A stretch of 64,000 nt of DNA from Myxococcales bacterium (GTDB lineage Bacteria > Myxococcota_A > Polyangia > Haliangiales > Haliangiaceae), in contig JADJGV010000002.1 of assembly GCA_016707895.1 (NCBI GenBank), positions 719,695 through 783,694 of the forward strand. Reading direction: 5' to 3'. How positions within the stretch are numbered: position 1 is the first letter of the stretch; the number at the start of each line of letters is the position of its first letter. The position numbers and the translations under genes were made by a program. The notes under the pieces were generated by a model. The model had not been told where the DNA came from, searched no databases, and saw nothing but the letters and a program-made list of their open reading frames with translations. Below are positions 27,649 through 32,779 of the stretch, piece by piece.

Positions 27649-28509
27649 TCAGCGGCACGGGCCGCGCGTCGTCTCGCGGTCGCGGTAGCAGAACGTCTCG
27701 ACCGGCGTCTCGTCGCCGCCGAGCTCGGGCTGGGCGCCGAAGGTGACGGTGCACGGCGTGCTCGCCGGCGGCACCTGCTGGTGCAGCTTGATCTGCCCGG
27801 CGTGGAACGCCTCGCCCGCGCGCAGCCCGCCGGCCTCGTGGTGGCTGGCGTCGTCGGTGGCGCCGCCGGCGCAGGCGATCGTCACGTGCATCCAGCCCTC
27901 GGCCGGCTGGTCGCGGTGGGCCTGCACGGTGTAGCGCAGCACGAGGTGCTCGCCGTTGAGGTACACGCCGTCCGGATCGGGCGCGACGTGCTCGACGGTC
28001 AGCTCGGGCACCGACCAGCCGCCGCCGGTGCCGTCGCCCGCGATCACGTTGGGCGGGCAGCGCCCGTCGACCGGCGCCTGGCCCAGCCGCGCGCACACTT
28101 CGTACAGCGGGCGCGGCGCGCCGCGGTAGCCCTCGTGCTCGGTGATACGCAGCTCGCACATCGACGGCTTGGCCGGCAGCTCGGACAGGACGAACGGCAT
28201 GCTCTCGTGCCAGCCCGCGCGCTCGCCGCGCATCCGCGGCCGCATCGCGGGGTACTCCGGCTCGTCGTTCACCAGGCGCAGCGCGCCGACCTGACACGCC
28301 GCGCGCACCTGCAGGTGGGTCTCGTCGCCGCCCTTGGGCGCCGTGTAGCGGTAGCGCGCCTCGAGGTACCACTCGACCTTGCCGTGGTCGTCGCGCGATC
28401 GCACCGCGACCCGCAGGCCACCGCCGCTCGCGCCGCTGCCGCCGTCGCCACCACCGCCGCCGCACGCGGCGATCAGCCCCAGCCCCAGCGTCGCCCACCG
28501 CGCGCGCAT
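27649..28509 (-). CDS. lipoprotein (hypothetical, 286 aa)
   Basis: MRARWATLGLGLIAACGGGGG lipobox. The ORF track fuses it to the upstream leuS-like region only because that region is frameshifted. Confidence 0.55.
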   Translation of the reverse strand: MRARWATLGLGLIAACGGGGGDGGSGASGGGLRVAVRSRDDHGKVEWYLEARYRYTAPKGGDETHLQVRAACQVGALRLVNDEPEYPAMRPRMRGERAGWHESMPFVLSELPAKPSMCELRITEHEGYRGAPRPLYEVCARLGQAPVDGRCPPNVIAGDGTGGGWSVPELTVEHVAPDPDGVYLNGEHLVLRYTVQAHRDQPAEGWMHVTIACAGGATDDASHHEAGGLRAGEAFHAGQIKLHQQVPPASTPCTVTFGAQPELGGDETPVETFCYRDRETTRGPCR

Positions 28510-30235: not shown

Positions 30236-32779
30236 TCAGACGACCAGGTTGACCAGGCGGCCCTTGACGTAGACCTCGCGCTTGATCGCCTTGCCGGCGA
30301 GGTGCTCGGCGACCTTCGGGTCGGCCTTGGCGGCGGCGATGATGTCGGCCTCGGGGGCGTCGGCCGCGACCTCGATGGTGCCGCGGAGCTTGCCCTGGAC
30401 CTGCACCGCGATGGTCAGCGTGTCGCGCTTGAGCTTGGCCTCGTCGTAGGCGGGCCAGGGCGCGTAGGCGATCGAGGTCGTGTGGCCGAGCCGCTTCCAC
30501 AGCTCCTCGCCGAGGTGGGGGGCGAACGGCGACATGATCTTCACGAACGCCGCGAACCAGGCGCGCGGCACGCCGCCGGCCTTGGTGGCCTCGTTGACGA
30601 AGACCATCATGTCGGCGATCGCGGTGTTCATGCGCAGGTTGTCGACGGCCTCGGTGACGCGCTTGATCGCCTGGTGCAGCGCGCGCTCGACGTCGCGCAG
30701 CTCGGGGCGGCCGTCGCCGTCGCCATCGATCACCTTGCCGGGCGCGCCCGACTCCTCGTCGCCGACCAGCAGGCGCCAGGCGCGGTCGAGGAACCGCCGG
30801 CAGCCCGACACGCCGTCGGTCGCCCACTCGGTGCCCTCCTCGAGCGGGCCCATGAACAGCTCGTACAGGCGCAGCGCGTCGGCGCCGTACTCGTCGCACA
30901 TGTCGTCGGGGTTGACGACGTTGTAGCGCGACTTGGACATCTTCTCGTTGCGGGTCTCGACCGCGTCCTGCGTGGCCTTCACCACCCAGCGGCCGGGCGC
31001 GAGCTGCTCGACCTCGTGGTCGTAGTAGTACTTGCCGCGCGCGTCCTTGAACGACGGCTTGTGGATCATGCCCTGGTGGAACAGCCGCGCGAACGGCTCC
31101 TTGGTGTGCACCAGGCCGCAGTCGTAGAGCACCTTGTGCCAGAACCGCGCGTACAGGAGGTGCAGCGTCGCGTGCTCGCTGCCGCCGACGTACAGGTCGA
31201 CGTTCATCCAGTACTGCTCCGCCTCGGGATCCCACGCCACGTCCTTGGCGTGCGGCGACAGGAAGCGCAGGTAGTACCAGCACGAGCCCGCCCACTGCGG
31301 CATCGTGTTGGTCTCGCGGATCGCCGGCGCGCCGGTCTCGGGATCGGTGGTCTGCATCCAGTCGCCGGCGCGGGCCAGCGGCGGCCGGCCGTCGGGGGTC
31401 GGCTTGTAGGCGTCGAGCTCGGGCAGCAGCACCGGCAGCGCGCTCTCGGGCAGCACCTTGACCGTGCCGTCGGCCAGCTCGATGGTGGGGAACGGCTCGC
31501 CCCAGTAGCGCTGGCGCGAGAACAGCCAGTCGCGCAGGCGGTAGCGCACGCTCTTCTCGCCGGCGCCGCGCTCGGTCAGCCAGGCGATCACCTTGTCCTT
31601 GGCGGCGTCGACGTCGAGGCCGTCGAGGAACTCGCTGTTGACGTGGGCGCCGTCGCCGACGTACGCCGCCGCGTCGACGTCGCCGCCGCGCACCACCTCG
31701 ACGATCGGGAGGTCGAACTTCTTGGCGAAGGCCCAGTCGCGCTCGTCGTGGGCCGGGCACGCGAACACCGCGCCGGTGCCGTAGCTGGCCAGCACGTAGT
31801 CGGCGATCCAGATCGGGATGTGCTTGCCGTTGACCGGGTTCACCGCGTACGCGCCGGTGAAGACGCCGGTCTTGGGCGCGTCGGCGGCCTCGGCGGTGCG
31901 GTCGCGCTCGCTGCGCTTGCCGGCCGCGGCGCGGTACTCGTCGACCGCGGCGCGCTGCGCGGCGGTGGTGATCGCGTCGACCAGCGCGTGCTCGGGAGCC
32001 AGCACGACGTAGGTGCCGCCGAACAGCGTGTCGGGCCGCGTCGTGAACACGGTGATCTTGGCGTCGTCGCCGGCCACCGCGAAGTCGACGTTGGCGCCGA
32101 TCGACCGGCCGATCCACTCGCGCTGCATGGCCAGCGTGCCGGCCGGCCAGTCCAGCCCGTCGAGATCGTCGATCAGCCGGTCGGCGTACGCGGTGATGCG
32201 CAGCATCCACTGCTTCATCATCCGCCGCTCGACCTCGTCACCGGTCTCGATGTACTTGCCGTCCTTGACCTCCTCGTTGGCCAGCACGGTGCCGAGCGCG
32301 GGGCAGAAGTTGACCGCCACCTCGGCCTGGTAGGCCAGGCCCTTCTCGAACAGCTTGAGGAAGATCCACTGGGTCCACTTGTAGTAGTCGGGCTCGCTGG
32401 TCGCGAGCTCGTGGTCCCAGTCGTACGACAGCCCCAGCCGCGACAGCTGCTGCTTGAACGTGGCGATGTTGCGCGCGGTGATCGCGCGCGGGTGGATGTT
32501 GTCCTTCTCGGCCTGGCGCTCGGCCGGCAGGCCGAAGCTGTCCCAGCCCATGACCCGCAGCACGTTGCTGCCCATCATCCGCTTGGCGCGCGCGACGACG
32601 TCGGTCGCGGTGTAGCCCTTGGGGTGGCCGACGTGCAGGCCCGACCCCGACGGGTAGGGGAACATGTCGAGCACGTAGTACTTGGGCTTGGTGCGATCGG
32701 TCGGCGTGGCGAACGTGCGCTCGCGCTCCCAGTAGGCTTGCCACTGGGCGTCGAGGGTCTTGTGGTCGAAGGAGGCCAT
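30236..32779 (-). CDS. leuS: leucine--tRNA ligase
   Basis: 847 aa. HIGH motif (LHVGHPKGY), KMSKS, CP1 editing domain, and anticodon-binding plus C-terminal domains. Collinear with bacterial LeuRS. Confidence 0.95.
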   Translation of the reverse strand: MASFDHKTLDAQWQAYWERERTFATPTDRTKPKYYVLDMFPYPSGSGLHVGHPKGYTATDVVARAKRMMGSNVLRVMGWDSFGLPAERQAEKDNIHPRAITARNIATFKQQLSRLGLSYDWDHELATSEPDYYKWTQWIFLKLFEKGLAYQAEVAVNFCPALGTVLANEEVKDGKYIETGDEVERRMMKQWMLRITAYADRLIDDLDGLDWPAGTLAMQREWIGRSIGANVDFAVAGDDAKITVFTTRPDTLFGGTYVVLAPEHALVDAITTAAQRAAVDEYRAAAGKRSERDRTAEAADAPKTGVFTGAYAVNPVNGKHIPIWIADYVLASYGTGAVFACPAHDERDWAFAKKFDLPIVEVVRGGDVDAAAYVGDGAHVNSEFLDGLDVDAAKDKVIAWLTERGAGEKSVRYRLRDWLFSRQRYWGEPFPTIELADGTVKVLPESALPVLLPELDAYKPTPDGRPPLARAGDWMQTTDPETGAPAIRETNTMPQWAGSCWYYLRFLSPHAKDVAWDPEAEQYWMNVDLYVGGSEHATLHLLYARFWHKVLYDCGLVHTKEPFARLFHQGMIHKPSFKDARGKYYYDHEVEQLAPGRWVVKATQDAVETRNEKMSKSRYNVVNPDDMCDEYGADALRLYELFMGPLEEGTEWATDGVSGCRRFLDRAWRLLVGDEESGAPGKVIDGDGDGRPELRDVERALHQAIKRVTEAVDNLRMNTAIADMMVFVNEATKAGGVPRAWFAAFVKIMSPFAPHLGEELWKRLGHTTSIAYAPWPAYDEAKLKRDTLTIAVQVQGKLRGTIEVAADAPEADIIAAAKADPKVAEHLAGKAIKREVYVKGRLVNLVV

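Follow-up and report, generated by a model that had tools for sequence, protein, structure and literature searches.

What becomes of a gene for an essential enzyme once it has been copied next to itself? The question is raised by a 64-kb stretch (hereafter the window) of contig JADJGV010000002.1 from a Myxococcales bacterium (GCA_016707895.1), where an intact leucyl-tRNA synthetase (LeuRS) gene, leuS, is followed by a second LeuRS-like gene, the paralog, which joins a strongly diverged 5' part to a 3' end almost identical to that of its neighbour. All coordinates are those of the window, whose GC content is 71-77% throughout, and labels beginning with L or P denote contigs and proteins found by homology. 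A first-pass annotation had described the pair as leuS and a catalytically dead, mosaic paralog, which could be a tRNA(Leu)-binding protein, a decaying pseudogene or an assembly artefact. We give a probability of about 0.7 to the reading that the paralog is a real tandem leuS duplicate, present in one lineage only and now a non-catalytic LeuRS-derived protein (a pseudoenzyme).

Lost modules and catalytic motifs of the paralog

The intact leuS (30236-32779, minus strand) encodes 847 aa, scores 1044.2 bits on TIGR00396 leuS_bact (cut-off 548.4), and has the PF13603 editing domain, HIGH and KMSKS all present. The paralog begins at a GTG at 30210, 26 nt after leuS on the minus strand and, once one T is removed from 28702-28704, encodes 566 aa, with its stop at 28509-28511. 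Frame-corrected in this way, it reaches 371.9 bits on the same model, below the equivalog cut-off, and its Pfam matches are confined to an N-terminal Rossmann remnant and the anticodon-binding domain (PF08264, E = 1.7e-19). Its last 198 codons equal those of LeuRS except for one residue. The 368 codons of the 5' part (29105-30210, minus strand) align as a degenerate remnant of the Rossmann core, with a nucleotide identity of 0.50-0.77 per 30-codon window and 52.9% amino-acid identity to the adjacent LeuRS; the divergent N-terminal portion of about 370 codons noted at first pass is thus confirmed, at a lower identity than the 55-65% then proposed.

Compared with leuS, the paralog carries seven in-frame deletions and no insertions, which together remove ZN1, CP1 (PF13603), the CP2/ZN2 region and the leucine-specific/KMSKS segment. 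LeuRS residues 232-408, corresponding to CP1, are deleted, and PF13603 gives no match in the paralog; in one relative, L082, about 100 aa of a degenerate CP1 are kept, without the TTRPDT and AHDERD motifs. KMSKS falls within a 28-codon deletion that turns GGSEHATLHLLY into ESPGERARQLLD, the EH..H motif is also absent, and HIGH has degenerated from HVGHPKGY to ISHVRGP in the window and to ISQIRGP in L087 and L082. The alignments therefore uphold the claimed loss of HIGH, KMSKS and the CP1 editing domain, the first by degeneration and the other two by deletion. Because HIGH, KMSKS, EH..H and CP1 have all gone, we infer that the paralog can neither form Leu-AMP nor edit. The type of constraint that acts on LeuRS has also gone, since 70 of the 173 positions invariant across eight diverse LeuRSs are changed. 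The remaining core is predicted to fold: an AlphaFold2 model of paralog residues 1-502 has a mean predicted local distance difference test score of 83 and a predicted template modelling (TM) score of 0.87, with low confidence only at the deletion scars, and its best structural match is the CP1-less LeuRS of Mycoplasma mobile (3ziu; TM 0.83/0.73). An antibiotic self-resistance LeuRS resembling AgnB2 was considered and rejected, the copy being without a synthetic site.

Two further observations concern LeuRS motifs outside the paralog. Five proteins found by homology (P0013, P0026, P0034, P0148 and P0153) are LeuRSs of 620-670 aa that lack CP1 and have HIGH and KMSKS intact; they come from hosts of which some have a high GC content and others are AT-rich, and are naturally editing-less enzymes, like that of Mycoplasma mobile. 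In the Myxococcales metagenome-assembled genome (MAG) L088, the sole leuS (228-2759; GCA_016717005.1, JADJUF010000036) reads GLRI-VPRGY in place of GLHVGHPKGY at HIGH, which is probably a local compensated frameshift or an assembly error in an essential gene.

Recurrence of the tandem and homogenisation of its 3' end

The two genes are separated by a tandem-duplication junction (30207-30236, minus strand) that holds a 9-codon remnant of the 5' end of a lipoprotein gene, ATGCGTCGCGCGGTGGCGGGGCAGGCGTGA. At one end the remnant shares bases with the leuS stop through its ATG (TGATG), and at the other with the GTG of the paralog through its TGA (GTGA). The same overlapping junction, with a remnant of 9 or 11 codons, is found in L001, L087 and L082/L083. 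At 96% identity, L001, a 945-bp contig from the Joint Genome Institute (JGI), runs from the 3' end of leuS through the junction of 26 nt into the paralog, of which it has 900 nt; L087 contains the 3' end of leuS, an intact 566-aa paralog and the lipoprotein gene; and in L082 and L083 the gene that separates leuS from the lipoprotein gene is an intact paralog of 657 aa, which in both still includes the degenerate CP1 remnant. The tandem of leuS and dead paralog proposed at first pass is thus present in four independent metagenome assemblies from different samples, with the open reading frame (ORF) intact in three of the four, and the search for the same arrangement in related genomes has a positive answer. 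The tandem is a real feature of one lineage.

This recurrence also decides the case of an assembly artefact, in which mis-joining or mis-resolved repeats gave rise to the second copy or to its identical 3' end. Such an origin would draw on repeats of 600 nt, longer than short reads, on at least one other homopolymer frameshift in the window (~52565), and on two contigs, L084 and L085, in which leuS leads to the lipoprotein gene by the alternative path. We nevertheless reject it as very improbable: at least four other samples, processed with different assemblers, independently yielded the same junction and paralog-specific sequence; the 5' 1.1 kb of the paralog is unique sequence that needs a 3' continuation; and copy-specific variants near the 5' boundary of the repeat recur across samples, L083 repeating the states of the L082 paralog, and L084 and L085 those of the L082 leuS.

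The family was reached by several routes. The first homology search gave only L001, and the paralogs of L082 and L087 were recovered through a search with the downstream lipoprotein, which has four homologs; a later profile search added only P0125, equal to the L082 form. Scans with paralog-specific peptides gave nothing in GTDB representative genomes or in JGI metagenome contigs, and exact-sequence look-ups of the window LeuRS and of the fused ORF (see below) gave no match. By LeuRS, the closest GTDB genomes are L002 (84% identity) and L003 (Kofleriaceae, 73%), each with a single leuS. In the more distant L088 and L089, adk and leuS are followed directly by the lipoprotein gene, without a paralog; adk-leuS synteny is kept in L002, L003 and L089. 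A second full-length LeuRS gene in tandem with leuS was observed in a Caldilineaceae MAG (L006, JAWKOU010000001; 10001-12559 and 12812-15349); these LeuRSs are 57% and 41% identical to that of the window and represent an unrelated, non-degenerate duplication.

In the window, the homogenised block comprises about 600 nt. The leuS copy (30232-30830, minus strand), delimited by alignment and blastn, spans the anticodon-binding helical domain, the C-terminal domain, the stop and 4 nt beyond, and is the donor partner; the paralog copy (28505-29104, minus strand) is the recipient of the conversion. In the nucleotide alignment they differ only by one extra T and one substitution (28613 G against 30340 T), which encodes Leu in the paralog and Ile in leuS; because relatives have Leu, the change arose in the leuS copy. 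The block begins at the protein motif EWATDG, and no third copy was found in the window by repeat search or blastn. Such identity beside sequence that has diverged by about 35% is far beyond chance. The first-pass annotation had equated 28486-29102 with 30214-30830 and had extended the block into the first lipoprotein codons. The identity is real, with limits a few bases away from those proposed, and beyond the stop the copies have 4 nt in common, then a 1-nt indel and 10 further common nt (28495-28504 and 30221-30230); 28486-28494 is not identical.

Comparison of lineages indicates how the block has stayed uniform. Over the last 603 nt, the paralog differs from its own leuS at 6 positions in the window and at 8 in L082, against 28-38 differences between the window and L082 or L087, whichever copies are compared; short-read assemblers cannot fully phase 600-nt repeats, which makes the counts for L082 and L087 uncertain. 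At about 29 sites both window copies have one base and both L082 copies the other, and in the ~18-21 nt that follow the stop, too, both copies have the same genome-specific variants. Upstream of the boundary, in contrast, all paralogs cluster together, apart from all leuS genes. In each of the three lineages the 5' limit is found at EWATDG, the start of the anticodon-binding helical domain, and on the 3' side the block extends to where the duplicated unit ends. Within 60 nt of the 5' limit, L082 retains three copy-specific differences, which fits tracts ending where homology fails. Because the same deletions, degenerate HIGH, junction remnant and flanks are shared, and the 5' parts form one clade, the duplication occurred once, and these comparisons show concerted evolution of the 3' block by recurrent gene conversion, and not independent duplications. 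The mosaic structure with a 3' part homogenised by conversion, suggested at first pass from the window alone, is thereby borne out by the contrast of 6-8 differences within genomes with 28-38 between them.

As to its origin, the whole of leuS was duplicated in situ, from about 10 nt upstream of its start to about 20-35 nt into the lipoprotein gene; that the duplicated unit ran into the latter accounts for the junction remnant of 9-11 codons. To judge from L089, where an overlap of ancestral type joins the leuS stop to the lipoprotein ATG, the predicted ancestral state is a leuS translationally coupled to the lipoprotein gene. The 5' part of the paralog forms a long branch near the base of the clade of close LeuRSs, after L003, and has none of the states derived in the LeuRS lineage of the window, L084 and L088 (with or without L089). 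This tentatively suggests a duplication older than the split from L088 and L089, with later loss of the paralog in these two, each test by shared derived states relying on only 2-7 sites. The duplication is accordingly placed within a Kofleriaceae-like clade of the Myxococcota and is not very ancient, in disagreement with the first-pass annotation.

Selection and frameshifts

If the paralog were free of constraint, its substitutions should show a ratio of non-synonymous to synonymous rates (dN/dS, or omega) of ~1 and no bias among codon positions, a pattern that the orthologs do not have (dN/dS 0.23-0.45, with an excess at third positions). L001 and the window differ at 37 positions of the paralog, distributed 6/9/22 over codon positions 1/2/3, and 22 of the changes are synonymous, where random placement of the same mutation spectrum would give 9.1 +/- 2.5. 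In pairwise comparisons of the 5' part among the window, L087 and L082, dN/dS is 0.27-0.45 and the synonymous excess reaches z = 4.9-6.4; for two of the three pairs, the observed value was never attained in 5000 neutral simulations. Over the same columns, leuS itself has a dN/dS of 0.22-0.46, with an absolute dN 3-6 times lower than that of the paralog. The differences between paralog and leuS, in contrast, are spread evenly over codon positions (116/129/135), with an omega of ~0.8. Since omega is so much higher against leuS than among orthologs, the comparisons show, at the level of sequence, a history in which a burst of relaxed or adaptive (near-neutral) change was followed by purifying selection in several lineages.

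These data bear directly on the possibility of a decaying pseudogene, which would be non-functional in all strains and would persist because stops are rare at 74% GC and conversion refreshes its 3' end, the frameshifts of the window and L001 being real decay. The loss of the catalytic motifs and of four modules agrees with such a history, as do the omega of ~0.8 against leuS, an upward drift of GC content at first and second codon positions, frameshifts in two of five copies, progressive deletion, and the absence of the paralog from L088, L089, L002 and perhaps L084 and L085. Length of the ORF alone is no evidence for a gene here, because very long spurious ORFs are common in sequence of 74% GC (one of 1060 aa, for example, lies antisense to leuS at 29630-32812, plus strand). 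However, a pseudogene would not be expected to accumulate substitutions so strongly biased towards synonymous changes in frame. Every deletion junction keeps the frame, including that of a further deletion that turned the 657-aa form into the 566-aa form, and the ORF is intact in L082, L083 and L087. Even downstream of its own frameshift, L001 has 10 synonymous against 3 non-synonymous codon changes. Moreover, an unselected insert between 600-bp direct repeats, which are prone to recombinational deletion, should vanish quickly, so that its persistence argues for selection. A pseudogene, one of the options considered at first pass, is consequently disfavoured, and we regard it as unlikely.

The two frameshifts deserve separate attention. 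As assembled, the paralog ORF of the window runs to 27649 and encodes 853 aa, fused in frame to the lipoprotein gene, because an extra base at 28702-28704 (minus strand; TT to TTT on the plus strand, AA to AAA in the coding sense) puts the final 64 paralog codons out of frame. The inserted T reported at first pass near 28697, with the resulting fusion, is therefore present in the assembly; it is private to the window and not a feature of the gene, being absent from L082, L083 and L087. L001 has a different private lesion, a 1-nt deletion (-1 frameshift) at another site. Sequencing error is possible for both lesions; the copies of L082, L083 and L087 are intact. Programmed frameshifting was rejected, since the extra base is absent from all orthologs.

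Elsewhere in the window, a PAS-HisKA-HATPase_c sensor kinase is split over two frames (52035-53100, plus strand) with a break at ~52565, where GAGGTCCCGCCGCC, read with one C fewer, gives an unbroken HisKA helix (TEVRRHPAQADLTRRLLALG). The break, a second +1 frameshift in a homopolymer, is attributable either to an indel-prone assembly or to another pseudogene; it was met in a survey of frame breaks by the phase of GC content at third codon positions (GC3), in which abutting operon genes resemble breaks. Just upstream, at 50374-52092 (plus strand), five abutting coding-like segments with GC3 >0.9, in differing frames and without Pfam matches, may be several small genes, or else the N-terminal part of the same kinase, broken by multiple frameshifts. 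Because of the break at ~52565, an assembly error is also a serious possibility for the paralog, whose extra base is either that, in a homopolymer, or a very recent strain-specific inactivation.

The paralog is followed by the lipoprotein gene (27649-28509, minus strand), which encodes a Cys-rich protein of 286 aa with the lipobox LIAAC and without a Pfam match, and whose ATG overlaps the paralog stop (TGATG). Its homologs (P0121-P0124) always stand immediately after leuS or the paralog in related contigs, and the four homolog clusters found all belong to the same Myxococcota clade. The locus thus forms a chain of stop/start overlaps (TGATG, GTGA, TGATG) that all lineages have kept. Neither a tRNA gene nor an Rfam family was detected in the window, and no sigma-70-like promoter or intrinsic terminator is predicted near the locus. 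Because the overlaps are conserved and leave no room for a terminator, with none predicted, the paralog would be co-transcribed with leuS, and translation would be chained from leuS through the 9-codon remnant and the paralog to the lipoprotein gene.

Such a chain could also mean that an open frame is maintained for the sole purpose of letting ribosomes through to the last TGATG, where they re-initiate on the lipoprotein gene, which was coupled to leuS before the duplication, the protein itself being without a role. The conservation of the chain agrees with this, as do the ancestral overlap in L089 and the fact that all indels are in frame. However, selection against stops and frameshifts alone would not produce a deficit of non-synonymous changes, the modular and fold-preserving pattern of deletions would be left unexplained, and no such passage is needed, deletion between the repeats being enough to restore direct coupling. 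We therefore think it quite improbable that the ORF serves only in this way.

Returning to the reading that the paralog is a retained pseudoenzyme, several points count against it, among them the imperfect phasing of the 600-nt repeats mentioned above. In their assembled form, two of the five known copies, those of the window and L001, are broken. Members of the family occur only in a handful of metagenome contigs, all of them closely related. The omega values, computed by the method of Nei and Gojobori, are inflated in a genome of 74% GC (GC3 0.93-0.99) and have comparative value only. Finally, L084 and L085 run directly from a full-length leuS to a lipoprotein gene whose product is identical to that of L082 and L083 (289 aa), a pattern in which the paralog may be dispensable and easily lost. 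These two contigs may represent deletion haplotypes produced by recombination between the repeats, and thus a presence/absence polymorphism, or else assembly shortcuts or repeat collapse at low coverage. Such leuS-then-lipoprotein contigs suggest that short-read assemblies can drop the paralog, and automated annotation would label it either a leucine--tRNA ligase or a fused lipoprotein.

Possible role and relation to known systems

The copy has lost every insertion module by in-frame deletion, together with the HIGH signature, and its 3' 600 nt, which correspond exactly to the anticodon-binding helical and C-terminal domains, have been repeatedly overwritten from the neighbouring leuS, with conversion tracts ending on both sides where homology ends. 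As what remains is a compact core and a tRNA-binding half identical to that of LeuRS, our best guess at its activity, and the most likely one, is non-catalytic binding of tRNA(Leu) through this C-terminal half. A fuller proposal is doubtful: the protein may be a functional tRNA(Leu)-binding factor made in step with LeuRS, for instance for sequestration, hand-off or regulation, whose tRNA-recognition module is kept identical by conversion that is tolerated or even favoured, and whose diverged core carries a new activity. The locus shows a leuS duplicate of a bacterium at a stage between decay and the gain of a new role, and it is a natural example of partial concerted evolution with tract limits set by homology; the paralog is also a candidate for a minimal scaffold of LeuRS type, which may bind tRNA while carrying out no chemistry. 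If the fuller proposal is true, the paralog would be the first LeuRS-derived pseudoenzyme in bacteria, and the pair would represent a case of concerted evolution confined to one functional domain of an enzyme and its pseudoenzyme.

To our knowledge, the non-charging LeuRS duplicates known so far are all archaeal. LeuRS is regarded as being among the most evolutionarily stable families of aminoacyl-tRNA synthetases (aaRS; PMC5388404). In two summaries of the subject (PMC9437257, PMC4005665), LeuRS-I of the Sulfolobaceae (Weitzel et al. 2020) and its counterpart in haloarchaea, LeuRS2 (Fang et al. 2014), are second LeuRSs that stand beside the essential one and aminoacylate poorly or not at all; in LeuRS-I the CP1 domain is disrupted and binding of tRNA(Leu) is retained, and a role outside charging has been proposed for both. 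The paralog resembles them as a second LeuRS gene kept beside the essential one. According to the same sources, however, LeuRS-I and LeuRS2 are archaeal, full-length, diverged in their C-terminal domains and not in tandem with leuS, and LeuRS-I still makes Leu-AMP while LeuRS2 charges weakly, whereas the paralog is bacterial, has lost HIGH, KMSKS and four modules, and has a C-terminal half kept identical to LeuRS by conversion. With the LeuRS of Mycoplasma mobile (3ziu) it shares a LeuRS core without the editing domain; that enzyme, in contrast, is active, has an intact synthetic site and is the sole LeuRS of its organism, whereas the paralog is without the motifs of that site and has a complete LeuRS beside it.

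Among other families, HisZ, YadB/GluQRS and PoxA/EpmA (PMC9437257, Table 1) are likewise aaRS duplicates that have lost canonical charging and are retained by selection. They are old and widespread and have defined new functions, whereas the paralog is confined to a few closely related uncultured Myxococcota. With respect to its 3' block, the pair recalls tufA/tufB and mtrA-1/mtrA-2 (PMC6053082), where paralogs within a genome are closer to each other than to their orthologs despite a single shared duplication, and particularly the latter, a tandem pair in which, following domain changes, homogenisation is limited to a part of the gene. That survey of concerted evolution in prokaryotes lists 26 genes, none of them an aaRS. 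Unlike in tuf and mtrA, conversion here links an essential enzyme with a derivative that is catalytically dead, and the limit of the tract falls at a domain boundary.

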